From IMG/VR virus record IMGVR_UViG_3300024978_000122: a stretch of 64,000 bases of DNA, one strand, 5' to 3'. Source of the DNA: a virus. The position numbers and the translations under genes are program-made. Numbering within the stretch: the stretch's first letter is position 1; each line of letters opens with the position of its first letter. This document shows, in pieces, positions 5,971 to 23,121 of the stretch. The notes under the pieces were generated by a model that made no database searches, was not told the origin of the DNA, and was given only the letters and a program-made list of their open reading frames with translations.

Positions 5971-5984
5971 GAGCGATCATCGAT

Positions 5985-8009
5985 ATGGCAATGGCAATCT
6001 GCTTTAAATGCGGTTCTGCAAAATCCGGCGCACTGGTCGCCTGCCGGAGTTGTAATGCTGCGCCGCGCACGAACAGCGAGTATGCCGTTTCGCTCGCGCT
6101 CTCCGACCATCTGTCGTCCAAAGATCAACTGGCCCAGTACAGCCACGAACTTCGCAACGGTCAGAAACTGTCTGTGCCGCGTGAGGCGCTTGTTCAGGCG
6201 CTGGATGCACTGAAAGACCCACAGCTCCTGGCGATGCTCGGCGCGCAAGCAGCAGCTCCCGCTCCAGCACCATCCGCCCCAGCAGCAACCCGACAGCCTC
6301 CACCTGCACCGTCGGCAGCTTCGCAACGGTCAGCCCCGCCGCCACCGTCTATCAGGCCGGAGCGTCGACTCACCAAGACGGCCCTCCATCAGTCCCCGTT
6401 CGCCATCTTGGGCGTGACGACACGCGATGACCGCAGACGCATCGTCGAGCTTGCGGAAGAGAAGTCACTGGAACTGGATCACGAGGTTTGCCAGAAGGCG
6501 CGTTCTGATCTGACCAATCCACGCAACCGACTGAGCGTGGAAATGGCTTGGCTCCCCGGCGTCTCGCCTCGCAAGGCATCTCAACTTTTTGACAGCCTGG
6601 TTCACAACCCGATGGCGATTCGGGAAGAGTCTGGTCTGCCTACGCTGGCACACCTGAACCTGCTGGCCGCTGCATTTGAGGCTGTGGATGGTGAGCACGA
6701 TGCGGACGATTTGGCTGAGTTCATCATGGAGACCGCCTACCTTGCCGAAGAGCTAAGCCCCGAGGATGTCCTGCGCGACCTCAATGAGGATCGCGCCGTC
6801 TCCGGCTTTCCGGAAGTGCGTGCGCTCGACCAGATCGAAGCCGAATTGAACGAGCGCAAGCGGTACTACCGCATCGCCATCAAAGACGCCCTCGACAGAC
6901 TTCCGCCAATGACGCTGATCCAAGTGATGACGGAAGCCGTCGATGGCGTGACTTCGGGCGGTGAAGATCATGCACCGGGGCTGGTCGATGATCTCGTGGA
7001 CAGCTACGAGGTGGAAACCCAAGGCATCCTGCAAAAGGAAGCGGAAAACGTCCACAAGCTCATCAAGGTGGCCAGAGAGCATGCCGACTCCGGCGAAGCA
7101 GCCGTCAAGCCTTACGTGGACAAGCTTGATGTGGTTGCACGTAATTGGGACAAGATCGCCCAGCCCATTCAACTGAGTTCGAAGGCGCGCGGTATCGACC
7201 ACGAAGCGAGCCGTCACTTGGCCTATGAGATTCGTAGCCTCGCTATCGACTTATTCAACAAGCATGACATGTTGGCGCAGTCTCAGCGACTGACCGGTCT
7301 GATTCAGGAGCTTTTTTCTGAAGTACCGGAAATCGCAGATCGAGTTGAGGAAGATGCGGACGCGCTCGCGGACATCTTCCAACAGCGCCAGCAGGCTGTG
7401 GCCCGCAAAGATGAGTGGGCGCGCGAAATATCTTACCGTGCCGAGATTGGCGTCATGTTCAAGGACACTTTGAGCATCTCGCCCCAGGGCGTCTCATGGA
7501 AGGGGCAGAACTTTCCCCTCGACTCGATCACGCGCGTTCGTTGGGGCGGCGTCAGTCATTCTGTCAATGGCATCCCCACAGGAACGACCTACACGATTGC
7601 GTTCGGCAATCGAAGTTCCGAAGCAGTTGTGGAACTGAAGAAGCAGGACATCTACAGCACGTTCATCGACAAGCTCTGGCGTGCGGTCTGCGTGCGTCTG
7701 CTCACCGAAATGCTCGAAGCCCTGAAAGATGGTCGCGATCTGCACTTCGGTGATGCGCTCCTGCACGACGACGGCATCACGCTGGTGAAGCGCAAGTTCC
7801 TCGGCTCCAACGAGAAGGTGCGTTGTTCGTGGGGCCAGGTCCACGTATGGAGTGCTGATGGTTCTTTCTGTATCGGAGCCAAGGACGACAAGAAGGTGAA
7901 TGCCGGGATTTCCTATATTCACGGTGCGAACACGCACGTTTTGGAGCAGGCCATTCGCATGGGTTTCAAGAAGCCTGGGATGCGCCGTTTGAGCGAGCTG
8001 CTGCAGTGA
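5985..8009 (+). CDS. Multidomain protein: N-terminal Zn ribbon, degenerate J-like segment, helical region, C-terminal PH-like domains
   Basis: CFKC..CRSC. SPFAILGV...ARSDLTNPRNRL mimics J-domain helices I and III/IV but has no HPD. C-terminal LSISPQGVSWKG..FPLDSI and LHDDGITL..CSWGQV look bPH-like. Confidence 0.7.
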   Translation: MAMAICFKCGSAKSGALVACRSCNAAPRTNSEYAVSLALSDHLSSKDQLAQYSHELRNGQKLSVPREALVQALDALKDPQLLAMLGAQAAAPAPAPSAPAATRQPPPAPSAASQRSAPPPPSIRPERRLTKTALHQSPFAILGVTTRDDRRRIVELAEEKSLELDHEVCQKARSDLTNPRNRLSVEMAWLPGVSPRKASQLFDSLVHNPMAIREESGLPTLAHLNLLAAAFEAVDGEHDADDLAEFIMETAYLAEELSPEDVLRDLNEDRAVSGFPEVRALDQIEAELNERKRYYRIAIKDALDRLPPMTLIQVMTEAVDGVTSGGEDHAPGLVDDLVDSYEVETQGILQKEAENVHKLIKVAREHADSGEAAVKPYVDKLDVVARNWDKIAQPIQLSSKARGIDHEASRHLAYEIRSLAIDLFNKHDMLAQSQRLTGLIQELFSEVPEIADRVEEDADALADIFQQRQQAVARKDEWAREISYRAEIGVMFKDTLSISPQGVSWKGQNFPLDSITRVRWGGVSHSVNGIPTGTTYTIAFGNRSSEAVVELKKQDIYSTFIDKLWRAVCVRLLTEMLEALKDGRDLHFGDALLHDDGITLVKRKFLGSNEKVRCSWGQVHVWSADGSFCIGAKDDKKVNAGISYIHGANTHVLEQAIRMGFKKPGMRRLSELLQ

Positions 8010-8037
8010 TTTAATCAAGAAATATTGGGGAGTTTTT

Positions 8038-8682
8038 ATGGGGTTTCTGTCGAACCTGTTCGGGGGCAATAAAGAGGACAAGGCGCTGCGCGAGGCATTG
8101 GCGCAGATTCACCGCATCCTCGATGACGAAGCATTCCAGTTGGAACTCGTCCATCCTGCAATGAAGGCGATGCTGGAGTCGGCTCCCGCCTATGACAAAG
8201 ACCCGAACGGCAGCGGCCCTTTCGGCTTCACCGAGTCCAATCCGATTCCAGTCAACGGGCCAATCGGCCAGCTGGCGTATCTGTCCAAACTCGAAACCCA
8301 GTCTGGTCAGCGCATCCTTTTTCATCGTCTCGGTGCCATCGACACGGTAGACGTGTTCGAGGCCGTGACGTTCAACGGTGCAGAGTGGTTCATCCTGTTC
8401 GTTGATCTTTACCATCCGCGACGCTCGCGCCTCACCCCGGACGGTTTCCGTTTCACGAAAGAGGTCGCGCAGTTCTCCGGCTTCCACAAGTTTTGCGAGA
8501 ACTTTCCCTACGACTTCGTCGAGAAGAAGGCGTCCGAGCGCGAATCGGGACTGAGCATGGCCTACATCGCCATCAGCAAGGTGTCCGACCAAATCCAGAA
8601 TCGAGTCTTCAATCGGCCGCTGGCTCACAAGGCCAAGCTCGATCTCGTGAAGAGCCGGTTGTCGAGCTTCCAATCCCAATAG
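8038..8682 (+). CDS. Hypothetical protein with amphipathic N-terminus
   Basis: Clean in-operon ORF with MGFLSNLFG start and a GPFGFTESNPIPVNG...AYLSKL motif. Function unknown. Confidence 0.75.
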   Translation: MGFLSNLFGGNKEDKALREALAQIHRILDDEAFQLELVHPAMKAMLESAPAYDKDPNGSGPFGFTESNPIPVNGPIGQLAYLSKLETQSGQRILFHRLGAIDTVDVFEAVTFNGAEWFILFVDLYHPRRSRLTPDGFRFTKEVAQFSGFHKFCENFPYDFVEKKASERESGLSMAYIAISKVSDQIQNRVFNRPLAHKAKLDLVKSRLSSFQSQ

Positions 8683-8691
8683 GTGACGCCG

Positions 8692-9180
8692 ATGAAGAAA
8701 CCGCTTCTCGCGACGCTCGCCGCATTGATGGGCCTCCAGGCCGCACCCGCCCTGGCCGAGAACTACGAGGTGAACCTGACCCGCAAGGGCAGTAACGTTT
8801 ACAAGATTGACGGCAAGGACATCATCATCCAGACACGCTACTGCTACGTCTACGCCTACTCTGAGGAGGCGATCTTCAAGACGTCAGGCTACGGCGGCGA
8901 GGTGATTTTCTTCGACAGCAAGGACAAATGCGATGTGAAGGCGGTCTTTGGCGTGTCGAAGCAGAAGCCGGGGAAATACGTGGTGACAGTCAGCCATGAG
9001 GACGACGACTGGTATGAGGTTTTTGGAACCAGCTCGTACATCAAGACATCAAGCTGCCTGTCTCTTGCCCTTGGCGAGGAGGCTTACCTGACCATTGCGA
9101 ATTCCGGGTTCGGAAGACTGCGCTTCAAAGATGGCAACGACTGCATGGTCGAAGCCGTTTACACCAAGCTGCGGCTATGA
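8692..9180 (+). CDS. Secreted protein with two tandem beta-rich Cys-pair domains
   Basis: Signal peptide MKKPLLATLAALMGLQAAPALA. Internal duplication YEVNLTRKGSNVY..C..EEA..C versus YVVTVSHEDDDWY..C..EEA..C. Confidence 0.8.
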   Translation: MKKPLLATLAALMGLQAAPALAENYEVNLTRKGSNVYKIDGKDIIIQTRYCYVYAYSEEAIFKTSGYGGEVIFFDSKDKCDVKAVFGVSKQKPGKYVVTVSHEDDDWYEVFGTSSYIKTSSCLSLALGEEAYLTIANSGFGRLRFKDGNDCMVEAVYTKLRL

Positions 9181-9197
9181 GAGGGAGATGATGAACC

Positions 9198-10250
9198 GTG
9201 GCTGCTGCTGACGACAAACAAAAGGGAGGTGCCACAGGCTTCTCCGGTCTTTCGACACTCGTCTCCGATGTCGAAGACAACCGTCCTGCCAGCAAAACTG
9301 CGCCGGAAGTCGCCCCGCCGCCGAGCAACCCACCGCCTCCAGAACCTACGCCCACACGGGCCGAGGACGCCCCGGCTGCATCCACCGCACCTCAATCGCC
9401 CAACGGAAAAAGCGACAGTTCTTCCGATGTGACCACCGGCAAATGGATGGTCGGCATCGGGTTGGGAATCGGGCTTCTGCTCATCATCTTCGTCAACTCA
9501 AGCAAGAACGAGTCTACCCGCCCGGTTGCGGCTCCCGCCGCACAGACCCCGGTCGCTGCTGTCCCCGCCTATCAACCGCCACCTCCCCCGCCAGTCACGC
9601 CGAGGCAGCAGCCCACCCAAGAGGCGGTCATCCGGCGAAGCGCCGCCACGGAATCCGTGAACGTGCTCGGCCAGCAGGTTGTGTTCTCGAACCCAAGCGG
9701 CTACTGCACACCGGGCAAGTCGGCACGGGAAATCGAACTGATGGACATGGCACGGCGTTCCCTCGGAGAAGGTTCTCGCCTCGTGCATGCCGCAGTCCTT
9801 TGTTCAGAACTGAAGGACTACAGGCAGGGCCAGCGGGAAATGCTGGATCACTGGCTGCAAATCCAACTCATCGGGCCGAAGGGAAATTTCCAGCGAATCG
9901 AGGTACCGCGCGAGACGTTCCTGTCCGGCCTTTCCAAGTCGAGTCCGCGGGTGAATCCTGCCGAACTCAATCGACGGCTGAAGGCGTCGTTCGAGAACAG
10001 CGACATCAGCCTGTCCGACATGAAGTTTGAGCCGATTGGGCGGGACGGCAACGCGGTCTATTTTTCCATGCGAATGAACATGAGCATTGGGGAAACCAGC
10101 CGACCGATTTCCGGGATCAGCGGAATCACCCTTCTAAACTCTCTCCCTCTGTCGATCAACGTCTATGAAGGCACCGGCTCGCAGCAGAGCCGTGGCCAGT
10201 TGCAGGCCATCCAGCAGGAGTTGCTGAACAGCCTCCTCACCGAGAACTGA
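9198..10250 (+). CDS. Single-pass membrane protein, N-terminally paralogous to 4660..5970, with a different extracytoplasmic domain
   Basis: GFSGLSTLVSDV motif, Pro-rich linker, TM KWMVGIGLGIGLLLIIFV. Confidence 0.85.
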   Translation: MAAADDKQKGGATGFSGLSTLVSDVEDNRPASKTAPEVAPPPSNPPPPEPTPTRAEDAPAASTAPQSPNGKSDSSSDVTTGKWMVGIGLGIGLLLIIFVNSSKNESTRPVAAPAAQTPVAAVPAYQPPPPPPVTPRQQPTQEAVIRRSAATESVNVLGQQVVFSNPSGYCTPGKSAREIELMDMARRSLGEGSRLVHAAVLCSELKDYRQGQREMLDHWLQIQLIGPKGNFQRIEVPRETFLSGLSKSSPRVNPAELNRRLKASFENSDISLSDMKFEPIGRDGNAVYFSMRMNMSIGETSRPISGISGITLLNSLPLSINVYEGTGSQQSRGQLQAIQQELLNSLLTEN

Positions 10251-10903
10251 TGATGAACAGAGCAAGATCAACATTCGCCGCCCTGTACCTCTGCTTGCTG
10301 GCCGTGGTCGCCCTGCCAGTCGCCGCGCAGACGACGGGCCATACCAAGCTCAACGTCAAAGGCCGAGTGCAACTCGAAATCCCGAGCGACTGGACAATCA
10401 GCGATGCGGAACAGCGAAAGCGCGTCAAGGAGTTTGGAGAGAAGCTCGTCGGGATTCCAACTCAGCACACTGCCTCACTTGCGGCGCAGTCCTACCCCGC
10501 GCCGTCACGAACGATGGTCAGGGTGTCGTTCATCCCGATGGAGCCACCAATCACTCAGGCCGATGTGCGGCAGGAAGTCCAAGCGAACAAGCAGCAGGTG
10601 CTGAAGGACTTGGCTGATACCTGGCGGGAAGAGGCCCCGACGATGTGGGCGGGTTTGGCAAAGAACGGTGTGAAAGAAGTGGGCCGCGCCAGCGTTGCCG
10701 TCGAGCCACTTGGCGGCCAGCTCGCCCTGATTATTCGCTACGCGCGCACCTCGACTGCCAATCCGGCCGAGACCATGAGAGTGACCCAGTACCACGTGCC
10801 TCTGGGCGCTGAAAAGGCGCTGATCACGCTTTCGTACATTGAGAGCGATCCGCAAGCGACAGCAGCACACAACCGATTGAAGAACAGCATCGTGATCCGA
10901 TAA
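10250..10903 (+). CDS. Secreted/periplasmic protein, possibly PsbP/DcrB-like fold
   Basis: Signal peptide ending in AVVALPVAA. VQLEIPSDW, GGQLALIIRY and ALITLSY resemble the PsbP/DcrB pattern. Fold assignment is tentative. Confidence 0.6.
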   Translation: MMNRARSTFAALYLCLLAVVALPVAAQTTGHTKLNVKGRVQLEIPSDWTISDAEQRKRVKEFGEKLVGIPTQHTASLAAQSYPAPSRTMVRVSFIPMEPPITQADVRQEVQANKQQVLKDLADTWREEAPTMWAGLAKNGVKEVGRASVAVEPLGGQLALIIRYARTSTANPAETMRVTQYHVPLGAEKALITLSYIESDPQATAAHNRLKNSIVIR

Positions 10904-10921
10904 GAAGAGCAGGAACCGCCA

Positions 10922-11551
10922 ATGGCCTACGAAGATCCCAACGCACCGTCGCCCGCCTCCAACAACCAGGCCCAACAATCAACGTCGCCTGTTGATCAAA
11001 GCAAGAGCTTTCTTGGCGGGCAACATCACCCGTGGCGACGATTGTTCGCGCGCACGGTCGATATCTGCACGGCAGGATTCCTGCTGTTCCTGATCCTGAT
11101 ATTCGCTTTTAGCGCAACGATGCCCGAACAGGCGGCGGGCTTTGCAAAGGCAATAGAGAATCCGATTGTCGCCAGCGTCGTGCTGTATTTGATCTGGCTG
11201 CCTGCTGAGGCGGTGCTGCTGTCGTTGTTCGGGACGACTCCGGCCAAGTGGCTGTTCGGCATCAAGGTCGCGCACCCTGGAGGCGGCTTGCTGTCCTTTT
11301 CGGAGTCGCTGAACCGCTCGTTTCTGGTCTTTGTTCAGGGCGTCGGGTTCGGCATTCCATTCGTCGCACTGTTCACGCAGTTGTTCGCGTATCGGCGGCT
11401 GACGAAAACGGGCACGACGCTGTGGGATACATCGACAAGCGCGGAGGTGCTTCACAGAAAGTGGGGCGTGTTCCGCGCGCTCATGTGTACTGCCGCCGTG
11501 TTCGCCGTACTGATTCTGATGAGTGCCTTGAACGCGGCAGGCAATCGATAA
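10922..11551 (+). CDS. RDD family membrane protein
   Basis: HPWRRLFARTVD, GTTPAKWLFGIKV, RSFL and LWD..T.V motifs; multiple TM segments. Confidence 0.88.
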   Translation: MAYEDPNAPSPASNNQAQQSTSPVDQSKSFLGGQHHPWRRLFARTVDICTAGFLLFLILIFAFSATMPEQAAGFAKAIENPIVASVVLYLIWLPAEAVLLSLFGTTPAKWLFGIKVAHPGGGLLSFSESLNRSFLVFVQGVGFGIPFVALFTQLFAYRRLTKTGTTLWDTSTSAEVLHRKWGVFRALMCTAAVFAVLILMSALNAAGNR

Positions 11552-11935: not shown

Positions 11936-12010
11936 TGGCCGACGTCGCCCAAACGTGGGAGAATTGGCAGGATTTGGCAATCATATTTCAACGTCGGCAA
12001 GGGCAAGGCG

Positions 12011-12214
12011 ATGGCAGACGCAGAAGACGAAATCCTCACGCTGGATGAAGTCGCGGCCTACCTGAAGGCGGGCAAGCGCACGGTCTACCGGCTCGCGGCG
12101 GACAAGAAGATCCCGGCGTTCAAGCTCGGCGGCACTTGGCGGTTCCGCAAGGCCGATCTGGAGCAGTGGATTGCGCAGCAAACAACAGGCGGCCAACGCG
12201 AGGGGAACGCATGA
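12011..12214 (+). CDS. Excisionase-type HTH protein heading the RM operon (controller-like)
   Basis: EILTLDEVAAYLKAGKRTVYRLAADKKIPAFKLGGTWRF. Overlaps the hsdM start (ATGA). Confidence 0.88.
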   Translation: MADAEDEILTLDEVAAYLKAGKRTVYRLAADKKIPAFKLGGTWRFRKADLEQWIAQQTTGGQREGNA

Positions 12215-14604
12215 CAAAACACCAAGACCAAAGCCAGATCAAATGGGTCGCCGACTTCATCTGGAATATCGCCGACGACCGTCTGCGCGACGTCTATGTG
12301 CGCGGCAAATACCGCGACGTGATCCTGCCGTTCACCGTGCTGCGGCGGCTCGACGCCGTGCTGGAATCCACCAAGCAGGCGGTGCTGGAGCGAAAGCAGT
12401 TCCTTGACGCGCACAACGTGGCCGAGCAGGACGGCGCACTGCGCATGTCGGCGGGCCAAGCATTCTACAACGTCTCCGACTTCACGCTGGCCAAGCTGAA
12501 AGGAAGCAGCCAAGGGCAGCGCCTGCGCGACGACTTCATCGCCTACCTCGACGGTTTCTCGCCCAACGTGCAGGAAATCCTCACCAAGTTCAATTTCCGC
12601 AACCAAATCCAGAAGCTCGTGGATGCCCACGTCCTGGGCTACCTGATCGAGGACTTCCTTGATCCCGAGGTCAACCTCTCGCCGTTGCCCGTGAAGGACG
12701 CGGATGGTCGCGTCAAGCTGCCGCCACTGGACAACCACGGCATGGGCACCGTGTTCGAGGAGCTGATCCGCCGCTTCAACGAAGAGAACAACGAGGAAGC
12801 GGGCGAGCACTTCACGCCGCGCGACGTCGTCAAGCTCATGGCCAAGCTGCTGTTTCTGCCCGTGGCCGAGCGCATCCAGTCCGGCACCTATCTGCTCTAC
12901 GACGGTTCCTGCGGCACCGGCGGCATGTTGACCGTGGCCGAGGAAACCTTGCAAGAGCTGGCCGACGACCACGGCAAGGAAGTCTCCATCCACCTCTACG
13001 GGCAGGAAATCAGCGACGAAACCTACGCCATCTGCAAGGCCGACCTGCTGCTGAAGGGAGAAGGCGGCGCAGCGGAGAACATCGTCGGTGGCGCAGACAA
13101 ATCGACGCTATCCGCCGACCAGTTCCGCAGCCGCGAGTTCGACTTCATGATCTCCAACCCGCCCTACGGCAAGAGCTGGAAGACCGATCTGGAACGCATG
13201 GGCGGCAAGCAGGGATTCAACGACCCGCGCTTCATCGTCAGCCACGGCGACAACCCCGAACTGAAGCTCATCACCCGCTCCAGCGACGGCCAGCTCATGT
13301 TTCTCGTGAACAAGCTGTCCAAGATGAAGCTCAACGCGCCCGCCGACGGCGTGGGCAGCCGCATCGCCCTAGTCCACAACGGTTCGGCGCTGTTCACCGG
13401 CGACGCCGGACAAGGCGAAAGCAATATCCGCCGCTGGGTGCTGGAAAACGATTGGCTCGAAGCCATCATCGCCCTGCCACTCAACATCTTCTACAACACC
13501 GGCATCGCCACCTACATCTGGGTGCTGGCCAACCGCAAGGCCGCCGCGCGCCGTGGCAAGGTGCAGTTGATCGACGCCAGCCAATGGTTCCAGCCGCTGC
13601 GCCGCAATCTCGGCAAGAAGAACTGCGAGCTGGCGGAAGGCGACATCCAGCGCATCGTCGACCTCTACTTGGGCGAGGCGCAGGAAACCGCGCAGTCGAA
13701 ATGGTTCGACACCCAGGACTTTGGCTACTGGAAGATCACCGTCGAACGCCCCCTGCGCCTCAAGAGCCAGCTGAAGCCCGCCGCCATCGAAACCCTGCGC
13801 TTCGCGTCGGGTGACGAAGCCCTGCGCGCGGAGATTTACGCAACGCACGGCGACAAGCTCTACACCGACTTCGCCAAGCTGAAGCCTGAAATCGAGGCGT
13901 GGCTGAAAGGTGATGATAGCGGCGACGGTGATGATGCGGCGGACAGCAACGACGAGGATGGCGAGGACGGCGCACCCGCGAAGAAGGCAGTGCCGGAAAA
14001 GCGCCGCAAGAAGCTGCTCGACGCTGCCACATGGCAGCGCGACAAGGCGCTGCTCGATCTGGCGCTGTTGGCGCAGCAGGACTTGGGCGACGCCGTGTTC
14101 GACGACCACAACGTGTTCCGCGAACGGTTCGACGCGGCAATGAAAGCGCAGGGCCAGAAGCTCGGTGCTGCAGACAAGAAGGCCATCCTCAAGGCCGTGA
14201 GCTGGCGCGACGAAGCGGCCCCGCCGGTGATCGCCAAACGCAGCAAGCTGAAAAAGGGCGACTACTTTGAGCCTGGCTTCGACGGCGCGTATCTGCAAAC
14301 GGTGGGCAACGACCGCTTCATGGTGGAGTACGAACCAGACACCGACCTGCGCGACACCGAGCAGGTGCCTTTGACGGAGCCGGGGGGCATCGAGGCCTTC
14401 TTCCGGCGCGAGGTGCTGCCACACGCGAGCGATGCGTGGGTGGACGGCGAGAAGACGCAGATCGGCTACGAAATCTCCTTCGCCCGCTACTTCTACCAGC
14501 CCGCGCCCTTGCGTTCGCTCGCGGAAATCCGCGCCGACATCCTGAAACTGGAACAGCAGACCGAAGGCTTGCTGCACAAGATCGTGGGAGGCGTTCCGGC
14601 ATGA
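12211..14604 (+). CDS. hsdM: Type I RM methyltransferase subunit M
   Basis: FIWNIADDRLRD, AGEHFTPRDVV, SAM motif YDGSCGTGGML, catalytic NPPY, C-terminal IGYEISFARYFY. Confidence 0.97.
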   Translation: MTKHQDQSQIKWVADFIWNIADDRLRDVYVRGKYRDVILPFTVLRRLDAVLESTKQAVLERKQFLDAHNVAEQDGALRMSAGQAFYNVSDFTLAKLKGSSQGQRLRDDFIAYLDGFSPNVQEILTKFNFRNQIQKLVDAHVLGYLIEDFLDPEVNLSPLPVKDADGRVKLPPLDNHGMGTVFEELIRRFNEENNEEAGEHFTPRDVVKLMAKLLFLPVAERIQSGTYLLYDGSCGTGGMLTVAEETLQELADDHGKEVSIHLYGQEISDETYAICKADLLLKGEGGAAENIVGGADKSTLSADQFRSREFDFMISNPPYGKSWKTDLERMGGKQGFNDPRFIVSHGDNPELKLITRSSDGQLMFLVNKLSKMKLNAPADGVGSRIALVHNGSALFTGDAGQGESNIRRWVLENDWLEAIIALPLNIFYNTGIATYIWVLANRKAAARRGKVQLIDASQWFQPLRRNLGKKNCELAEGDIQRIVDLYLGEAQETAQSKWFDTQDFGYWKITVERPLRLKSQLKPAAIETLRFASGDEALRAEIYATHGDKLYTDFAKLKPEIEAWLKGDDSGDGDDAADSNDEDGEDGAPAKKAVPEKRRKKLLDAATWQRDKALLDLALLAQQDLGDAVFDDHNVFRERFDAAMKAQGQKLGAADKKAILKAVSWRDEAAPPVIAKRSKLKKGDYFEPGFDGAYLQTVGNDRFMVEYEPDTDLRDTEQVPLTEPGGIEAFFRREVLPHASDAWVDGEKTQIGYEISFARYFYQPAPLRSLAEIRADILKLEQQTEGLLHKIVGGVPA

Positions 14605-15635
14605 GCCAGCGCAACGAGCTTCTGGCGTCCATCGCCAACACGATCCAGGACTACCGGGGCGGCTCGCTCCCGCAGCCCATTCCCGACCATGTCGAGCGTT
14701 GGGTGCAGCAGTTCGACGCCGCCGTGCAGTTGCCCATCCTGCAAGAGATCGACCATGTCCTGAAGAAGATCTACTTCTCGAAGGAGGACGTGGCGAAGTT
14801 TCTCCGTGGCGCGATGCGCACCCAGAAACTCACCGGCGACAGACCCGACAAGTTCTGGCGATCCGCCAGCTTCCTCGACATCCAGGGCGGTGGCAGCAGC
14901 CAGACCGACATGCTCGCCCTGTTCTCCGAGCAGCTGGAGGAAGAGCATGGATTTGGCATCGACGACTGCGGGCAAGGCGACGAAGTCTTCATCTATCTGG
15001 ATGACGGCATCTTCACCGGCAACCGCGTGCGGCGCGACCTGGAGAATTGGATTCGTGATCACGCGCCCGCGCAGGCGAAGGTGCATGTGATCTGCATCGC
15101 CCAGCACAGTGGCGGGCAGTATTACGCAAGCGGCAAGATTCAAGACGCCATCAGAGCCTCGGGCAAGACCATTGGCATCACTTGGTGGCGTGCCATCGAG
15201 CTGGAGGACAGGCGGGCCTACAGCGCAACGGCGGACGTGTTGCGCCCGACGGCGATCCCGAACGATCCTGCGGTGCAAGCCCATGTGGCGGCCATGCGGT
15301 ACCCGCCCACGCTCAGAGCCGCTGGCAACCCCGGCGCTGCGGGTCTGTTCTCCAGCGACGCGGCCAAGATTCTGCTGGAGCAGGAGTTCCTGAAGGCCGG
15401 CGTCCACATCCGCCAGATTTGCCCCAACCTCGGTGACACCCAGCGCCCGCTGGGCCACATGACGTTGGAGACGCTGGGCTTCGGCTCGCTCATCGTCACT
15501 TACCGCAACTGCCCCAACAACGCGCCACTGGCGTTCTGGGTGGATGCACCGTGGTATCCGCTGTTCCCGCGCACCACGAATACGCAAACGGCAGTGCGCA
15601 GGATGTTTGCGAGTCTGACCGGAGACGATCTCTGA
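14601..15635 (+). CDS. Phosphoribosyltransferase-like protein (PRTase-CE type)
   Basis: PRPP-loop FIYLDDGIFTG at 14988-15020. C-terminal GFGSLIVTYRNCPNN.P.AFW..WYPLFPR. Coupled to hsdM (ATGA) and to the next gene (TGATG). Confidence 0.75.
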   Translation: MSQRNELLASIANTIQDYRGGSLPQPIPDHVERWVQQFDAAVQLPILQEIDHVLKKIYFSKEDVAKFLRGAMRTQKLTGDRPDKFWRSASFLDIQGGGSSQTDMLALFSEQLEEEHGFGIDDCGQGDEVFIYLDDGIFTGNRVRRDLENWIRDHAPAQAKVHVICIAQHSGGQYYASGKIQDAIRASGKTIGITWWRAIELEDRRAYSATADVLRPTAIPNDPAVQAHVAAMRYPPTLRAAGNPGAAGLFSSDAAKILLEQEFLKAGVHIRQICPNLGDTQRPLGHMTLETLGFGSLIVTYRNCPNNAPLAFWVDAPWYPLFPRTTNTQTAVRRMFASLTGDDL

Positions 15636-17635
15636 TGGCCGAGAGAGATCAAACCCGCACCTACAGCCGCAAGGAAAGCGTCGTCTTCCTCAAGACCGAC
15701 GAGCCGTTCGGCGGCCTGTCCAACATGGCGGGGGGCTACCCGATCCATGTGAACGGGGTGCGGATACTGACCTCCGAAGCGCTGTATCAGGTCTGCCGCT
15801 TTCCGCATCTTCCCGACGTGCAGAAGCTGATCATCGGCCAGGTCAGCCCGATGACGGCCAAGATGCGGAGCAAGCCTTACCGCAAGGACTCGCGCCCGGA
15901 TTGGGATCAGGTGCGCGTGCGCATCATGCGCTGGAGCCTGCGCATGAAGCTGGCCAACAACTGGAACACCTTCAGTGCGCTGCTGCTGAAAACCGGCGAC
16001 CGGCCCATCGTCGAGGAGTCGCGCAAGGACGCATTTTGGGGAGCCAAGGTCGTTGACGACGGCGACACCCTGGTCGGCATGAACGTCTTGGGCAGGCTGC
16101 TGATGGAGTTGCGCGAGCAGGTGAAGCAGCAGGGGCGCGACGCAGCCCTCGATATCGCACCGCCGGACATTCCGCAGTTCCTGCTGTTCGGGCGGCCGAT
16201 TGAAGTGGCAGTGGGCGTGCCAACGCCGCAGGCCGTCGAAGCACAGGAGCAAGGCTCCCTATTCGGTGCGGACACAGCCGCCGCCGTCGAGGCTGTGGCT
16301 GCTCGGGCACCGGTTGCTCAGGCCAAGACGGTCTATGAAGCCTATCGCGCATCGGGTCTGCCTTGGGTGCCGCATGTACCAGAAGGCTGGCAGGTGCTGC
16401 GCAATGGCCGCCTGTTCGGTCATCGCGTCGAAACCGGTTATCCCGACTTGCCGATTCTCGAAGTTTCGCTGCGCACCGGCGTGCGCGTGCGCGACATGGA
16501 ACATGGCAAGCGCAAGCAGGTGATGAGCCAGAAGGAGAACTACAAGCGCGCGGTCAAGGGTGACATCGCCTACAACATGATGCGCATGTGGCAAGGCGCG
16601 GTCGGCCCTGCTCCGGTCGACGGCTTGGTGAGTCCGGCCTATGTCGTGGTCAAGCCGTTCGCCGAAGCCAACAGCGCCTATTACAGCTACCTGTTCCGCA
16701 CGCAGGCGTACATGCGCGAGGTCAACAAGTTCTCGCGCGGCATCGTGGCCGACCGCAACAGGCTGTATTGGGAATCCTTCAAGCAGATGCCTTCGCTCGT
16801 GCCCCCGCGCCCGGAGCAAGACCAGATCGTCGCCTACCTGCGCGCGCAGGATGCCCACATCGCCCGCTTCATCAAGGCCAAGCGTGATCTCATCGCGCTG
16901 ATGGCCGAGAAACGAAGTGTCCTTGCAGAGCGTGCGATTTCATCAGCGGACACGCAATACCTTCGACTAGACCGAGTCGTCTCGCTTCTGGCAACGCCAA
17001 TCACCAGGGAGCCGAAGGCGACTTACACCCCGATTGGCATGTTCAACCGTGGGCGCGGCATCTTCCACAAGCCATTGACCGAAGGAAAGCATCTTGGGGA
17101 TTCGACATTCTTCCGAATCGGAAAGGGCGACCTGGTATTCAGTGGGCAGTTCGCTTGGGAAGGTGCTATTGCTGTCGCAAGTGCAGAAGATGAAGGGTGC
17201 ATTGCGTCCCATCGCTACCCGATTGCCAAGTGCAAACTGGATGCTGTCACGCCGGAGTATCTCTACACGTTCTTCTTGAGCAAGGCTGGCGACCTGATTC
17301 TCAACCATCATTCACGCGGCGCAGCGGGACGCAATCGCCCGCTGAATCCGCGCTCGCTGTTAAAGGAGAAGATTCCGGTTCCGCCGCTGCATCGGCAACG
17401 CGAAGTTTCCGATTTCCTCTATGAAGAACTATCGGTGCGCCGCGAGATAGAGAAGGAAATTGCCTTGATCCGCGAATACCGCGACCGCCTGATTGCTGAC
17501 GCCGTCACCGGCCAGGTTGACCTGCGCGGCTGGCGGCCCGGCCCGGACGATGCCGTCAGCGACGACGATCTTGCTGCGCTGGGCGACGATGAAGCCGCAC
17601 CCACCGAGGAGGATGCCGATGGCGAAGAAAACTGA
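15635..17635 (+). CDS. hsdS: NADAR (YbiA-like) domain fused to type I specificity subunit HsdS
   Basis: N-terminal LSNM..TSEALYQ..SPMTAK..DW..VM..TGDRPIVEES..DAFWG..GMNVLGRLLMELRE is NADAR. From about 16334, YRASGLPWVPHVPEGW, PPRPEQDQIV and REYRDRLIADAVTGQVDLR are HsdS. One continuous frame. Confidence 0.92.
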   Translation: MAERDQTRTYSRKESVVFLKTDEPFGGLSNMAGGYPIHVNGVRILTSEALYQVCRFPHLPDVQKLIIGQVSPMTAKMRSKPYRKDSRPDWDQVRVRIMRWSLRMKLANNWNTFSALLLKTGDRPIVEESRKDAFWGAKVVDDGDTLVGMNVLGRLLMELREQVKQQGRDAALDIAPPDIPQFLLFGRPIEVAVGVPTPQAVEAQEQGSLFGADTAAAVEAVAARAPVAQAKTVYEAYRASGLPWVPHVPEGWQVLRNGRLFGHRVETGYPDLPILEVSLRTGVRVRDMEHGKRKQVMSQKENYKRAVKGDIAYNMMRMWQGAVGPAPVDGLVSPAYVVVKPFAEANSAYYSYLFRTQAYMREVNKFSRGIVADRNRLYWESFKQMPSLVPPRPEQDQIVAYLRAQDAHIARFIKAKRDLIALMAEKRSVLAERAISSADTQYLRLDRVVSLLATPITREPKATYTPIGMFNRGRGIFHKPLTEGKHLGDSTFFRIGKGDLVFSGQFAWEGAIAVASAEDEGCIASHRYPIAKCKLDAVTPEYLYTFFLSKAGDLILNHHSRGAAGRNRPLNPRSLLKEKIPVPPLHRQREVSDFLYEELSVRREIEKEIALIREYRDRLIADAVTGQVDLRGWRPGPDDAVSDDDLAALGDDEAAPTEEDADGEEN

Positions 17636-18764
17636 CACCAAAATTGTGTCGACACCGCCGACACAATCTGCCGCCCTGCAAGCTGCGGGACAAATGGCCG
17701 CTCTACCCACCACCGGGCAAGGCGAGTTTCTGCTCTACCAGACCGAGGACGCCCAGACCCGCGTGCAGGTGCGCTTTGAGGCGGGTGACGTGTGGCTGAC
17801 CCAGCAGCAGTTGGCCGATCTTTATCAAAGCTCGCCACAGAACATCACCCAGCACATCCGCGCCATCTACCAGACCGGGGAATTGCAGGAGGCGGCAACT
17901 TGTAAGCCGTACTTACAAGTTCGGCAGGAGCGCGGTCGGCAGGTCAGCCGCAGCCTCAAGCACTACAACCTGGAGGTGGCGCTGGCCATCGGCTACCGGG
18001 TGAAGTCGCACCGTGGCACGCAGTTCCGCCGCTGGGCCACGGAGCAGCTCAAGACCTATTTGCGCAAAGGCGTGCTGCTGGACGATGAGCGCTTCAAGCG
18101 CGGTGACGACGCCGAGTATTTCGAGGAGCTGCTGGCGCGCATCCGCGACATTCGCTCGTCGGAAAAGGTGTTCTGGCGCAAGGTGCTGGACATCTACGCC
18201 ACCAGCCTGGACTACGACCCGCACACCGAAACCTCGCAGCAGTTCTTTGCCACGGTGCAGAACAAGATGCACTGGGCGGCGCACGGCCACACGGCGGCCG
18301 AGCTGATCGTGCAGCGTGTGGACGCCAAGGCGCAGAACATGGGCCTGACCAGCTGGGCCGCTGCCAGCAAGGGCGGGCCGGTACGCAAGGCGGACGTGGG
18401 CATCGCCAAGAACTACCTGAATGCCGAAGAACTGGACACGCTCAATCGCATCGTCACGGCCTATATCGAGGTGGCGGAATTGCAGGCGCAGGCGCATCAG
18501 CCCATGACCATGCGCGATTGGGCAACAGAGCTGGACAACTTCCTGCGCCTGACCCGCAAGGACATCCTGACTCACGCTGGCAAGGTGCCAGCCAAGTCGG
18601 CGCTGGCCAAGGCCGAAGCGGCCTATGCCGAATATCAGGCGCGGGTTCGCAACCTGCCGTCACCGGTGGAAAAGGACTTCGAGGCGGCCATCGCGCAGCC
18701 GGTGAAGCAGTTGGAGAAGGGCCGAAAAGCCCTGCCAAGGCCGAAAAAGAGAGGTGACGCATGA
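17619..18764 (+). CDS. rhuM: RhuM-family DNA-binding protein
   Basis: GEFLLYQTEDA..VWLTQQQLADLY..HYNLEVALAIGYRVKSHRGTQFRRWAT..FFATVQNKMHWA. Confidence 0.9.
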   Translation: MAKKTDTKIVSTPPTQSAALQAAGQMAALPTTGQGEFLLYQTEDAQTRVQVRFEAGDVWLTQQQLADLYQSSPQNITQHIRAIYQTGELQEAATCKPYLQVRQERGRQVSRSLKHYNLEVALAIGYRVKSHRGTQFRRWATEQLKTYLRKGVLLDDERFKRGDDAEYFEELLARIRDIRSSEKVFWRKVLDIYATSLDYDPHTETSQQFFATVQNKMHWAAHGHTAAELIVQRVDAKAQNMGLTSWAAASKGGPVRKADVGIAKNYLNAEELDTLNRIVTAYIEVAELQAQAHQPMTMRDWATELDNFLRLTRKDILTHAGKVPAKSALAKAEAAYAEYQARVRNLPSPVEKDFEAAIAQPVKQLEKGRKALPRPKKRGDA

Positions 18765-21700
18765 CCCGCCCCACCGACACCAGCGAATTGGGCCTGGAAC
18801 GGCTGATCGTGCGCCATCTGGCGGGCATCAGCGCACATCCGCCCGTTGCGCCCAACACGGCGCAGGAGCCGGTGTCGGTGTATGGGCCGGGTGGCTACGT
18901 GCTGGGCCGGGCGAGTGACTACAACCGCGACGTGGCGCTGGACGTGGCGAAGCTGCTGGAGTTCTTGCAAGCCACACAGCCCAGGGCGGTAGAAACGCTG
19001 AATCTGGCCAGCGAGGGCATCCAGCGCACGCAGTTTCTGCACCGACTGCAAGGCGAGATCGCCAAGCGCGGCGTAGTGGACTGTTTGCGCCGTGGCGTGA
19101 GCCACGGGCCGGTGACGGTCGATCTCTACAAGCTGCTGCCCACGCCGGGCAACGCCGCTGCCAGCGAAGCCTTCGCCAAGAACATCTTCAGCGTCACCCG
19201 GCAGGTGCGCTACAGCAACGACTCCGGCAACGAGCTGGACTTGGTGGTCTTCATCAACGGCCTGCCGGTGTTGACCTTCGAGTTGAAAAATTCGCTGACC
19301 AAGCAGACGGTGGCCGATGCCATCGTCCAGTACCAGACCACGCGCGATCCGAAGGAGTTGCTGTTCCAGTCCGGTCGCTGCGTTGCGCACATGGCGGTGG
19401 ACGACGCCGAGGTGCGCTTCTGCACCGAGTTGAAGGGCAAGGCCTCGTGGTTCCTGCCTTTCAACCAGGGCTGGAACAGCGGTGCGGGCAATCCACCAAA
19501 CCCCAACGGCATCAAAACCGACTACCTGTGGAAGCAGGTGCTGGCGAAGGAGTCGCTGGCGAACATCATCGAGAACTACGCACAGGTGGTGGAGGACGAG
19601 GAGGAAGACGCCAGCGGCAGGCGGCGCAAGACCCGCAAGCCGGTGTTTCCGCGCTTTCACCAGTTGCGCACAGTACGTGCCCTGCTGCGCCGTTCGCGCG
19701 CCGACGGTGTGGGCCAGCGTTACCTGATCCAGCACTCTGCGGGCAGCGGCAAGAGCAACACCATTGCATGGCTGGCACACCAGTTGGTGGAGCTGAAGAC
19801 GGCGGCGGATGCAATGCAGGCGCAGTTCGATTCGGTCATCGTCATCACCGACCGGCGTGCGCTGGACACCCAGATCCACAAGACCATCAAGGGCTACGAC
19901 CATGTGGCCTCGATCCTCGGCCATTCGGACAATGCGCAAGAACTGCGCGACTTCCTGCGCCGGGGCAAGAAGATCATCGTCACCACGGTGCAGAAGTTCC
20001 CCTTCATCCTCGACGAACTGGGCGACTTGGGCGACCGGAAGTTCGCGCTGCTGATCGACGAGGCCCATTCCAGTCAGGGCGGCAAGACCACGGCCAAGAT
20101 GCATCAGGCCCTTGGGGGCTCAGTGGGTGGTTCGGTCGGCGGCAAGACCGACGAGGAAGCGTTCGAGGAAGGCTCCACGCAGGATGCGGTGAATGCGGAA
20201 ATCGAAAAGCGCATTGCATCGCGCAAGCTGCTGACCAACGCCAGCTACTACGCCTTCACCGCCACGCCGAAGACCAGGACGCTGGAGTTGTTCGGCGAAC
20301 GGGTGACGGTGGGCGACAAGGTGCAGTTCCGCTCGCCGGAGGAACTGACCTACACCACCAAGCAGGCGATACAAGAGGGTTTCATCCTCGACGTGATCGC
20401 CAACTACACGCCGGTGGACAGCTTTTACCACGTCGCCAAGACCATAGAAGACGATCCGCAAGTGGACAAGCTGAAGGCGCTGAAGAAAATCCGGCGCTAC
20501 GTCGAGTCGCACGACAAGGCCATTCGCCGCAAGGCGGAGATCATGGTCGATCACTTCACCGCGCAGGTGATCGGCGCGAAGAAGGTCGGAGGCAAGGCGC
20601 GGGCGATGATCGTCTGCAACGGTATCGCGCGCGCCATCGACTACTTCCGCGAGGTGTCGGACTACCTTGCCGAGATCAAGAGTCCGTACATGGCCATCGT
20701 TGCGTATTCGGGTGACGTCGAGATGGGCGGATCGAAGAAGACCGAGGCAGACCTCAACGGCTTTCCAAGCAAGGACATTCCGGCCAAGCTGAAGCTCGAC
20801 CCGTATCGGTTCCTGATCGTCGCCAACAAGTTCGTCACCGGCTTCGACGAACCGTTGCTGCACACCATGTACGTGGACAAGCCGCTGGCGGGCGTACTGG
20901 CGGTGCAGACCTTGTCGCGCTTGAACCGGGCGCACCCGCAGAAGGCGGACACCTTCGTTCTCGACTTCGCCGACAACGCCGAAGCGGTGAAGGGGGCGTT
21001 TCAGGAGTACTACCGCGCGACGATTCAGGACGGCGAAACCGACCCGAACAAGTTGCACGACCTCAAGGGCGAGCTGGACGCGCAGCAGGTTTACAGCGGC
21101 AGCCAAGTGGACGACTTGGTGGCGCTGTATCTGTCCGGAGCCGACCGCGAAAAGCTCGACCCCATTCTCGATGTCTGCGTGGCCGAGTACGTCAGCAAGC
21201 TCGGCGAGGACGAACAGGTCAAGTTCAAAGGCAAGGCCAAGGCGTTCGTTCGCAGCTACGGCTTCCTCTCCGCGATCCTTCCCTACGGGCATCCGGCATG
21301 GGAGAAGCTGTCGATCTTCCTGAATTTCCTGACGCCGAAGCTACCCGCGCCGAAGGAGGAAGACCTCTCCAAAGGCGTGCTGGAGGCCATCGACATGGAC
21401 AGCTACCGTGCGCAGGCGCAGGCGGCGATGAAGATGGCGCTGGACGACGCGGACGCCTTGGTCGAACCGCCGCCGCCCGGCGGTGGCGGTGGCAGTGGCG
21501 AGCCGGACTTGGACAGGCTCTCGAACGTGATCAAACAGTTCAATGACCTGTTCGGCAACATCGAGTGGCACGACGCGGACAAGATCAAAAAGGTCATCAC
21601 CGAAGAAATCCCCGCGCGCGTGGCGCAGGACAAGGCGTATCAGAACGCACAGGCCCACTCCGGCAAGCAGAACGCGCGGCTGGAGCACGACCGGGCGCTG

Positions 21701-21862
21701 GGCCGCGTGGTGCTAGAGCTGCTGGACGACCACACCGAGCTGTTCAAGCAGTTCAGTGATAACCAGAATTTCAAACGCTGGCTGGCGGACATGGTGTTCG
21801 ACTCCACCTATCGCCCCGGTGCAACGCCGCCAGCGCGGCCGCAGCCCGACGCTCCGGCGTGA
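18761..21862 (+). CDS. hsdR: Type I RM restriction subunit R
   Basis: Nuclease DLVVFINGLP..ELKN, Walker A QHSAGSGKS, DEAH box, FTATPK, TGFDEP, QTLSRLNR. Confidence 0.97.
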   Translation: MTRPTDTSELGLERLIVRHLAGISAHPPVAPNTAQEPVSVYGPGGYVLGRASDYNRDVALDVAKLLEFLQATQPRAVETLNLASEGIQRTQFLHRLQGEIAKRGVVDCLRRGVSHGPVTVDLYKLLPTPGNAAASEAFAKNIFSVTRQVRYSNDSGNELDLVVFINGLPVLTFELKNSLTKQTVADAIVQYQTTRDPKELLFQSGRCVAHMAVDDAEVRFCTELKGKASWFLPFNQGWNSGAGNPPNPNGIKTDYLWKQVLAKESLANIIENYAQVVEDEEEDASGRRRKTRKPVFPRFHQLRTVRALLRRSRADGVGQRYLIQHSAGSGKSNTIAWLAHQLVELKTAADAMQAQFDSVIVITDRRALDTQIHKTIKGYDHVASILGHSDNAQELRDFLRRGKKIIVTTVQKFPFILDELGDLGDRKFALLIDEAHSSQGGKTTAKMHQALGGSVGGSVGGKTDEEAFEEGSTQDAVNAEIEKRIASRKLLTNASYYAFTATPKTRTLELFGERVTVGDKVQFRSPEELTYTTKQAIQEGFILDVIANYTPVDSFYHVAKTIEDDPQVDKLKALKKIRRYVESHDKAIRRKAEIMVDHFTAQVIGAKKVGGKARAMIVCNGIARAIDYFREVSDYLAEIKSPYMAIVAYSGDVEMGGSKKTEADLNGFPSKDIPAKLKLDPYRFLIVANKFVTGFDEPLLHTMYVDKPLAGVLAVQTLSRLNRAHPQKADTFVLDFADNAEAVKGAFQEYYRATIQDGETDPNKLHDLKGELDAQQVYSGSQVDDLVALYLSGADREKLDPILDVCVAEYVSKLGEDEQVKFKGKAKAFVRSYGFLSAILPYGHPAWEKLSIFLNFLTPKLPAPKEEDLSKGVLEAIDMDSYRAQAQAAMKMALDDADALVEPPPPGGGGGSGEPDLDRLSNVIKQFNDLFGNIEWHDADKIKKVITEEIPARVAQDKAYQNAQAHSGKQNARLEHDRALGRVVLELLDDHTELFKQFSDNQNFKRWLADMVFDSTYRPGATPPARPQPDAPA

Positions 21863-21884
21863 GTGACATCCGAGGAGTGATGCA

Positions 21885-22826
21885 ATGGCATTGAATCTGG
21901 CGAAAGTTCTGATTGCCTACTTGAAGGATCGGCCCGAGGAGAAGTTCACCGCAAGGCAGATCGCCGAGTGGGTGTTCGCCACGTTTCCGGCCGAGTGTCA
22001 GGCAAAGAAGGCAAGCAGCAAGTTCATCACCAACGATGCCGAGCTGGTGCAGCAGTTGGTCGCCGAGATCAGCTCGCAGCGCCCCGTCTTGCAAAAACGT
22101 CACCTGGAGTTGAAAACGACCGAAGGACGGCCGCGTAAGTACTACTACTCGGAGCGGACGGACAGTGCCGAGGTGGCAGCGGTCGAAAGCGCAGGAACGA
22201 CGTCGGCAGCGGATGCGAGCGCATCGAAGGTCGACGAGCACGCCTTGTATCCGCTGCTGTCGCAGTATCTGTGGGAGGAGTTCGGTGTGTTCTCCAAACG
22301 CATCGACGAGAAGCGTTCGTCGAACAAGCGCGGCCCCAACGGCAACCGCTGGTTGTACCCGGATGTGGTCGGCATGGAAGATCTGGGCGCGGACTGGCAC
22401 CAGGAGGTGCGCGACTGCGTTAACCAGTATTCCGACAAGCGCACCAAGCTGTGGTCGTTCGAGGCCAAGCTGCTGATCAACCGTTCGAACGTGCGTGAGT
22501 GCTTTTTTCAGGCGGTGTCGAATTCGTCGTGGGCCAATTTCGGCTATTTGGTCGCGGCGGAGATCGGCGGCACCGATACGCTGAAGGAACTGCGGATGCT
22601 GTTCGCCGCCCACGGCATCGGCTTCATCAAGCTGGACGTGGACAACCCTGCCGACAGTCAGGTGCTGATTCCGGCGCGCGAGCGCGACGAGATCGATTGG
22701 GACATGGCCAATCGGCTGGCCACGGAGAACCGAGATTTTCTGGAATACGTGAAGCTGGTGAAGCAGTTCTACCAGACCGGCGAGGCGCGCCCAGCGGACT
22801 GGGACGTTCCCGAACTGGACGATTGA
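21885..22826 (+). CDS. COG2958/HrgA-like protein: wHTH plus restriction-endonuclease-like domain
   Basis: N-terminal wHTH (TARQIAEW..TTEGRPRKYYY). C-terminal EHALYP..WLYPDVVG..SFEAK..FFQAVSNSSWANFGYLVA. Confidence 0.75.
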   Translation: MALNLAKVLIAYLKDRPEEKFTARQIAEWVFATFPAECQAKKASSKFITNDAELVQQLVAEISSQRPVLQKRHLELKTTEGRPRKYYYSERTDSAEVAAVESAGTTSAADASASKVDEHALYPLLSQYLWEEFGVFSKRIDEKRSSNKRGPNGNRWLYPDVVGMEDLGADWHQEVRDCVNQYSDKRTKLWSFEAKLLINRSNVRECFFQAVSNSSWANFGYLVAAEIGGTDTLKELRMLFAAHGIGFIKLDVDNPADSQVLIPARERDEIDWDMANRLATENRDFLEYVKLVKQFYQTGEARPADWDVPELDD

Positions 22827-22830
22827 CCGC

Positions 22831-23121
22831 CTATTCCAGGTGGCCGACGACGTCGAGGCGTTCGTCGCCGCGCTGAAACGCGCCGAACCAGCCGTCACGC
22901 GAGTCGGCGCGGGTGCGGCTCACCAGCAGCGTGAACCCCTCGCAGCCGCGCCCTTTGGCGGTGGCGAAGTCGGTGGTGTCGAATTTGGCCTCGCGCACCA
23001 ACGTCGTGGCCACCGACTTCATGGCCGATTCGAACAGGTCGAGCAGATGGTCTTGCAGGCTGGCGTCGATGTTGCGCGAGGTCACGTCGTCGATGACGGC
23101 ATGCTTGAATCGGTTACTCAT
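22831..23121 (-). CDS. Hypothetical moron-like protein downstream of the lysis cassette
   Basis: 96-aa ORF with GGAG RBS, preceded by a copy of the recurrent phage promoter-like motif. Confidence 0.65.
   Translation of the reverse strand: MSNRFKHAVIDDVTSRNIDASLQDHLLDLFESAMKSVATTLVREAKFDTTDFATAKGRGCEGFTLLVSRTRADSRDGWFGAFQRGDERLDVVGHLE

Follow-up and report, generated by a model that had tools for sequence, protein, structure and literature searches.

Why should a NADAR-type N-glycosidase be built into the specificity subunit of a Type I restriction enzyme? The question is raised by IMG/VR virus record IMGVR_UViG_3300024978_000122, a 64,000-nucleotide stretch of DNA (the window), in which six plus-strand genes, each overlapping the next by 1–17 nt, encode an HTH_17 protein, the methyltransferase subunit HsdM, a phosphoribosyltransferase (PRTase), a fusion of a NADAR domain to the specificity subunit HsdS (NADAR::HsdS), RhuM, and the restriction subunit HsdR. 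A preliminary description of this locus had proposed a new defense system. That proposal stands for the NADAR–HsdS fusion, which is undescribed in the literature searched, and falls for the PRTase–NADAR pair, as both members score above the cut-offs for the known anti-phage system DS-32. What is known, then, is the DS-32 pair and the embedding of cargo genes in Type I operons; what is new is the fusion.

NADAR and HsdS are encoded in one frame

The translationally coupled order hsdM-PRTase-NADAR::hsdS-rhuM-hsdR, as first described, was confirmed by Pfam, NCBIfam, and PADLOC domain matches and by the gene junctions. The TGA stop codon of hsdM lies within an ATGA, with the PRTase gene starting at 14601, and the TGA stop of the PRTase gene lies within a TGATG (15633–15637), with the fusion gene starting at 15635. 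The rhuM ATG at 17619 stands behind GAGGAGGA and overlaps the end of hsdS by 17 nt, and both the HTH_17/hsdM and rhuM/hsdR junctions are ATGA overlaps. NADAR and HsdS are joined, again as originally reported, in a single frame of 666 codons (15635–17635). PADLOC Specificity_I matched this protein in two stretches from residue 233 (1.5e-66), and AlphaFold2 (AF2) modeled the HsdS part with a predicted local distance difference test (pLDDT) score of 70–95 and long helices at residues 392–435 and 585–625; the two target recognition domains (TRDs) and two conserved helices of a Type I HsdS are present. The NADAR part was poorly modeled in the whole fusion, for which the alignment was shallow and near-invariant.

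The earlier view that HsdS lacks a good start of its own was borne out, as no conserved in-frame start codon with a ribosome-binding site was found 5' of the HsdS part. No conserved methionine precedes it in four aligned loci, the sole in-frame GTG common to these four (window position 16205) has no ribosome-binding site 5' of it, and an AGGAG within codons for QEQG has no in-frame start behind it. The operon contains no second hsdS, and no further NADAR was found in the genome to which the window belongs, a fragmented metagenome bin of 626 contigs that is 83% complete. One contig of this genome (G000, C87, 1722–2879, minus strand) carries an 850-aa open frame with two Methylase_S matches, far above normal HsdS length, which may be a further fused specificity subunit.

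Across 116 full-length fusions, identity to the window exceeds 90% for NADAR, is 60–80% for TRD1 and 96% for the central helix, drops to 22–31% for the hypervariable TRD2 (~16908–17466), and is 67–84% for the C-terminal helix. This profile is the classic one of HsdS domain shuffling, here in a fusion that has persisted.

The fusion is real, old, and widespread

When the search was limited to long proteins and only the NADAR part was scored, 916 proteins with this NADAR were retrieved. Nearly every one of the top 120 is 660–705 aa long and has NADAR, and Methylase_S is recorded for most; the hosts include Ottowia, Stenotrophomonas, Acidithiobacillus, Pseudomonas aeruginosa, and Achromobacter, among others. 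Proteins identical or nearly identical to the fusion occur on dozens of contigs. In species-representative genomes, at least 585 relatives were found. The best 80 loci were examined, and in 59 of these the NADAR frame runs into HsdS (near-complete in 50 of the 59). In 78 of the 80 loci the PRTase gene lies directly 5' of NADAR. Nearly all of the fused loci have hsdM and hsdR on either side, and they are spread over Pseudomonadota, Acidobacteriota, Chloroflexota, Planctomycetota, Verrucomicrobiota, Myxococcota, Thermodesulfobacteriota, and more phyla. In a set of representatives of 50%-identity clusters, 34 of the best 150 NADARs carried HsdS, and the NADAR identity of the fused representatives fell as low as 57%. 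A NADAR-domain tree of 148 rows was poorly resolved; the HsdS label changes at least six times on supported branches, a count blurred by truncated metagenome proteins. Locus L077 has an unfused NADAR with hsdM nearby, and downstream hsdS and hsdR genes were not found there; it is the sole such case among the loci examined.

Could the fusion be an artefact, produced by a stop codon lost in a single strain, by a frameshift, or by faulty assembly? Nothing beyond the fragmented state of the metagenome bin speaks for this. The identical stretch occurs in 14 runs of 7 bioreactor or wastewater studies, and fused homologues number in the hundreds. The fusion is real, old, and widespread; the one-off stop-loss or assembly error, which the preliminary description had listed among the outcomes that would overturn it, therefore fails as an account and is refuted, its probability being negligible.

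The PRTase and NADAR are a DS-32 pair

DS-32, identified by DefensePredictor, is an anti-phage pair validated in E. coli that consists of a 343-aa PRTase and a 203-aa NADAR protein; its mechanism was left open, and its authors say no more of the NADAR protein than that it is structurally like the DarTG antitoxin (10.1101/2025.01.08.631726, PMC13092281). The PRTase of the window (DS-32A) scored 420.8 bits against NF053875 (DS32_1_antiphage; cut-off 250), with a full-length match over residues 1–322, and also matched PF24390 (PRTase-CE; 3e-61). The NADAR domain (DS-32B) scored 276.6 bits against NF053876 (DS32_2_antiphage; cut-off 240) over residues 8–189, matched PF08719 in Pfam at 4e-23 (residues 18–163), and matched YbiA (2b3w) at 3e-17. 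As in the E. coli system, the PRTase comes first, the two genes are co-directional with overlapping stop and start codons, and the catalytic motifs are intact. The E. coli pair is made up of standalone proteins, however, whereas here the NADAR forms the N-terminal part of a 666-aa HsdS in a restriction operon, and not a standalone protein of ~200 aa. Phage protection is known for the E. coli homologue only. PADLOC gave only a weak PRTase_III-A match (PRTase residues 268–335), the database used (PADLOC-DB 2.0.0) having no DS-32 model.

Both enzymes look active, since the PRPP (phosphoribosyl pyrophosphate) loop and key NADAR residues are invariant in the aligned sequences. The PRPP loop spans PRTase residues 129–141 (nt 14985–15023) with the motif YLDDxxFTGN, and Tyr132, Asp134, Asp135, and Gly140 are unchanged across 40 homologues. 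In NADAR, the glutamates of the SEALYQ and IVEES motifs that were initially singled out as catalytic (Glu48 and Glu127) are unchanged across 54 homologues, as are Trp135, Gly136, and Asn150. AF2 modeled the PRTase (pLDDT 85) with the core of a Type I PRTase, a fold confirmed by VIA-align with UPRT (Z 9.1), PyrR, OPRT, and HGPRT as top matches; a sequence search of the PDB gave no match, and Foldseek against the PDB gave weak PRTase rows only. In the model, the PRTase core is preceded by a stretch of six helices with a single short strand, for which no separate fold search for a pyrophosphatase was made.

Three observations support an effector role for the PRTase. First, many multidomain conflict proteins have PRTase-CE as a terminal effector domain. 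Second, the related PRTases of Retron-Eco11 and ShosT are toxic; the toxicity of ShosT depends upon its PRPP-loop aspartates and ShosT perturbs purine metabolism (PMC11961720), while PRPP falls upon activation of Retron-Eco11 (PMC12746101). Third, as described above, the catalytic motifs are intact.

Comparison with other systems sets the locus apart. The PRTases of retron type III-A (Retron-Eco11, PMC12746101) and ShosT (PMC11961720) belong to the same PRTase-CE family and share the PNNxP motif, which is common to retron type III effectors and lies at residues 305–309 here. In contrast to these systems, the operon has no reverse transcriptase or DprA-like antitoxin and apparently no multicopy single-stranded DNA or pyrophosphatase domain, and the partner of its PRTase is a NADAR. 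A retron type III-A was rejected, as none of the six operon genes encodes a reverse transcriptase domain (non-coding RNA was not searched), and ShosTA was rejected for want of a DNA_processg_A domain, the DprA-like antitoxin, in the operon. In DarT1–NADAR (PMC11543638), a NADAR glycohydrolase likewise stands beside a base-modifying transferase and frees an exocyclic base nitrogen in DNA from a ribosyl adduct, but the partner there is an NAD-dependent ADP-ribosyltransferase rather than a PRPP-type PRTase. Counted by position from the published numbering rather than aligned, the DarT1-type catalytic aspartate would fall on Ile125 of our NADAR; the YbiA-type glutamate, Glu127, is kept. Identity with DarTG1 was rejected, since the neighbor is a PRTase-CE protein and no ADP-ribosyltransferase domain was found among the operon genes.

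The cassette was inserted into a Type I operon

Insert-free relatives reveal how the fusion arose. Unfused HsdS proteins of 439–441 aa are up to 86% identical to the fusion over the whole HsdS part and are encoded in plain hsdM-hsdS-hsdR operons. One insert-free locus (L120) aligns to window positions 12216–14588, 16340–17640, and 18890–22963, so that, relative to it, the window contains two insertions, namely the DS-32 cassette (14589–16339) and rhuM (17641–18889). The native N-terminal motif of HsdS (M-x4-AYPxYR...W) is kept in the fusion from approximately residue 229. Standalone DS-32 pairs occur in genomes G094 and G182, in a Thiomicrospira Tn7-like element, and in E. coli. The DS-32 cassette was inserted at the hsdM/hsdS junction of a Type I operon, and the stop codon of DS-32B was lost.

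Positions 11956–21863 of the module are 82–92% identical in DNA to loci of P. aeruginosa, Acidithiobacillus, and Porticoccaceae, except in TRD2 and the accessory slot, and these loci sit in integrase-flanked islands. DNA similarity to relatives L034 and L036 starts at 11956.

Cargo among hsd genes has precedents in PrrC/EcoprrI, in TgvAB of V. cholerae VPI-2 (PMC11411939), and in the operons compiled by the 'guilt by embedding' survey of Payne 2024 (10.1101/2024.01.29.577857), where a figure legend lists a NADAR domain among embedded multi-gene candidates. In relatives of our locus, GmrSD, RhuM, and YhcG fill the same slots. The cargo of those precedents, however, consists of separate proteins, whereas here the specificity subunit itself carries a cargo protein through a covalent link. 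In the literature searched, we found no paper on a NADAR–HsdS fusion.

Related fused operons (L059, 6115–7911; L113, 6062–7903 and 12805–14118; L035, 2841–4559) show a GmrSD-family Type IV restriction gene, either between hsdM and the PRTase gene or 5' of hsdM, and in one locus a Macro-domain gene separates hsdS from hsdR. In alphaproteobacterial L058–L114, HsdM (~66%) and HsdR (~62%) are equally far from the window, the PRTases fall into classes of 43–47% and 59–65%, and the NADARs are similar. These values hint that the PRTase may have been swapped within the DS-32 cassette.

Fusion partners and a spacer motif point to DNA

Characterized NADARs split bonds between ribosyl groups and base nitrogens. 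YbiA acts on riboflavin intermediates, and the DarT1-associated NADAR cleaves N2-ADP-ribosyl-guanine in DNA (PMC11543638). Where might the DS-32-type enzyme act? Its recurring fusion partners are HsdS, DUF1156 methylases (Hma-type), HHH_3, HTH_17, a DprA-like domain with the fold of the ShosA antitoxin, helicase-like domains, and DUF4365; TIR and M78 peptidase partners are rarer. Most of these partners bind DNA. The DUF1156 fusions resemble ours in having the same type of NADAR, N-terminal on a DNA-modification subunit and with a PRTase gene 5' of it, but belong to another host system with another fusion partner. PRTase::NADAR also occurs as one chain, and we take such single-chain proteins as evidence of a functional link between the two enzymes. 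Taken together, P0182, P0187, P0180, P0220, P0225, P0172, P0204, L119 (8986–9924), and L091 (449–2350) account for the single-chain PRTase::NADAR and the DprA-like, TIR, M78 peptidase, DUF4365, HHH_3, and helicase-like architectures.

The 45-residue spacer between NADAR and HsdS is predicted to be disordered (AF2 pLDDT below 35 over residues 172–234). Its length ranges from 37 to 80 aa among 50 fusions, its sequence varies, and its indels are exclusively in frame. Gln206, Leu209, and Phe210 are nonetheless invariant in 41 fusions, while the sequence around them has diverged freely. Of 208 distinct tails, 82 contain Q..LF, compared to a mean of 1.7 in shuffled tails, although relatedness inflates these statistics. 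The Q-x-x-L-F motif is found in mid-spacer in fusions and often at the extreme C-terminus of standalone proteins; tails bearing it include L080, L085, L116–L118, P0210, and P0232. The bacterial β-clamp-binding consensus is QL[S/D]LF or QxxLF, and the pentapeptide QGSLF of the window fits it and lies within the disordered region. The motif thus resembles, and putatively is, a β-clamp-binding site. The fusion, like the mostly DNA-binding partners and the conserved QxxLF tail, suggests that DNA is where the NADAR enzyme acts.

A possible mechanism and its alternatives

These results lead to a model in which DS-32A would be the effector. This PRPP-dependent PRTase, a member of the conflict-effector clade from which retron type III effectors also come, would attach ribose-5-phosphate to a nitrogen atom of a base, probably in DNA or close to it, and the NADAR N-glycosidase would strip this adduct, following the toxin–antidote logic of DarT1–NADAR. 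Through its fusion to HsdS, the antidote would sit on host DNA alongside the M2S1 methylase complex, and QxxLF may further place NADAR on the sliding clamp. Were the restriction complex driven off DNA, or its synthesis stopped, the PRTase would be freed. One of the options raised in the preliminary description was that HsdS delivers NADAR to DNA to remove adducts that shield phage DNA; the data favor a version of it in which NADAR is brought to DNA as an antidote to the neighboring PRTase and not against phage-made adducts. What each part is, where the insertion begins and ends, that the fusion has persisted under selection, and that it is widely spread are all established, and we hold the architecture to be very likely right. 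The reading as a whole, a DS-32 cassette inserted in a Type I operon with a PRTase effector and a DNA-tethered NADAR antidote, seems to us slightly better than an even proposition, and the tethering of the antidote to DNA, taken as a step by itself, is plausible but rather doubtful.

Several points weigh against this reading. The Type I PRTases known so far have small-molecule targets, and Retron-Eco11 acts by PRPP depletion rather than by marking DNA (PMC12746101). DS-32B lacks a DNA-binding domain where it stands alone, TIR and M78 peptidase are NADAR partners that do not bind DNA, and QxxLF is missing from the two PRTase::NADAR single-chain fusions. This motif is short and could alternatively be a peptide that docks the PRTase, and its statistics are, as noted, inflated by relatedness. 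Structure prediction for a complex of the PRTase with NADAR residues 1–215 gave no answer and is evidence neither way.

Other accounts of the fusion must be weighed against the tethered-antidote reading. The cassette might guard the restriction complex in the manner of PrrC/EcoprrI, as the preliminary description had also proposed: the fusion would serve to sense the state of the restriction enzyme and not to reach DNA, host shut-off or anti-restriction proteins (DNA mimics among them) would deplete or inactivate NADAR–HsdS, and the stable PRTase would kill the infected cell. Its position inside the operon with translational coupling, the presence of NADAR on an Hma-like methylase as a second restriction-type partner, the near confinement of PrrC to Type I operons (10.1101/2024.01.29.577857), and the triggering of ShosT by loss of the unstable ShosA antitoxin all fit such a guard; of PrrC-type latency and release, the embedded layout alone is seen here. 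A guard does not account, however, for the joining of NADAR to generic DNA binders (HHH_3, DprA-like) or for the conservation of QxxLF in standalone proteins, and there is no sign that a mimic bound to HsdS alters a domain on a 45-residue floppy spacer. We regard it as unlikely. Alternatively, DS-32 and the restriction enzyme could be independent neighbors, the fusion being a tolerated by-product of a stop/start overlap that secures co-expression and co-inheritance. Type I operons of this family do take unrelated cargo (RhuM, YhcG, GmrSD, Fic, ThsB-TIR, HicA, a Macro-domain gene), E. coli DS-32 works as standalone proteins, and the spacer is long and disordered. But the fusion has been kept across phyla despite TRD swaps and spacer indels, fused loci outnumber the single unfused case of NADAR near hsdM (L077) by 59 of 80 to one among the loci examined, and NADAR has been joined recurrently to at least five other DNA-related partners, which leaves mere cohabitation decidedly improbable.

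Neither enzyme need be an antitoxin if the two form a futile cycle, in which the PRTase loads and NADAR strips ribose-5-phosphate, PRPP is burnt, and phage nucleotide synthesis is starved. The lowering of PRPP by the activated Retron-Eco11 PRTase and the disturbance of purine metabolism by ShosT are consistent with this idea, and PRTase::NADAR single chains look like consecutive enzymes of a pathway. Such a cycle requires an unknown switch for the cell to survive, however, and explains neither why NADAR should be tethered to DNA-binding subunits nor why it should have a clamp-like motif; we consider it very improbable.

Organization of the operon and neighboring genes

The coordinates of the operon and its parts are collected in Table 1. 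HsdM was identified as a Type I methyltransferase subunit by matches to HsdM_N (4e-23), N6_Mtase (7e-52), and PADLOC MTase_I (5e-255), and HsdR comprises a nuclease and a superfamily 2 motor, with HSDR_N, SWI2_SNF2, ResIII, and T1R_D3-like domains. The HTH_17 gene, which was missing from the original gene list, is also found 5' of hsdM in relatives L034 and L036. The rhuM gene occupies a variable slot between hsdS and hsdR that contains yhcG/DUF1016 or nothing in L034–L036 and is empty in L120. Downstream of hsdR, the 313-aa gene gave no match in Pfam, NCBIfam, or PHROG searches and has 78–84% DNA identity to genes near hsdR in the insert-free loci L120 (12332–13273) and L121 (13725–14672).

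Table 1. Genes of the operon, domains of the fusion protein, and the adjacent downstream gene
Feature	Position (nt)	Strand	Length or residues	Evidence and remarks
HTH_17 (AlpA-like) gene	12011..12214	+	67 aa	Pfam HTH_17 1.7e-19; heads the conserved module
hsdM, Type I methyltransferase subunit	12211..14604	+	797 aa	Start ATG 12211, from sequence
DS-32A, PRTase-CE phosphoribosyltransferase-like	14601..15635	+	344 aa	NF053875, PF24390
NADAR::hsdS fusion	15635..17635	+	666 codons	Single unbroken frame
NADAR domain (DS-32B)	15635..16204	+	residues 1–190	NF053876, PF08719
Disordered spacer	16205..16339	+	residues 191–235	Ala/Pro/Val-rich; contains Q206-G-S-L-F210 (nt 16250–16264)
HsdS part	16340..17635	+	residues 236–666	TRD1, central conserved helix, TRD2, C-terminal conserved helix
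rhuM accessory gene	17619..18764	+		Virulence_RhuM 1.4e-107, PADLOC PDC-S05 1e-136
hsdR, Type I restriction/translocase subunit	18761..21862	+	1033 aa	TIGR00348 2e-57
Gene without family	21885..22826	+	313 aa	Accompanies hsdR in relatives; system membership uncertain

A scan for promoters and terminators found no terminator-like site on the plus strand inside the operon, and promoter-like sites were at chance level. Contigs from RNA libraries cover most of the operon, spanning the hsdM/PRTase and PRTase/NADAR junctions, and are weak evidence of expression, as such contigs are no proof of transcription; positions 16288–16801 are bridged by none of them.

Directly 5' of the module, seven tightly packed plus-strand open reading frames (436, 691, 214, 165, 350, 217, and 209 aa) occupy window positions 4660–11551. 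Searches of Pfam, NCBIfam, and PHROG gave only an RDD domain in the last of these and a sub-threshold Alba match in the first (24.8 bits against a cut-off of 25), and the group may be another unknown cassette.

Implications for DS-32 and restriction

The fusions to HsdS, DUF1156 methylase, HhH, and DprA-like domains, together with the clamp-like motif, provide the first concrete and testable clue to the site at which DS-32 acts. In its furthest-reaching form, which we put forward as a speculation more likely wrong than right by a wide measure, the DS-32 PRTase would phosphoribosylate DNA bases, NADAR would be a repair-like antidote recruited via QxxLF and the HsdS fusion, and phage anti-restriction would trigger abortive infection. 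If true, this would amount to a new nucleic-acid modification and to a hard-wired coupling of restriction to abortive infection. The locus offers a natural case in which restriction and toxin–antidote layers are wired into one protein, and splitting the fusion could tell cooperation from cohabitation of embedded defense systems.

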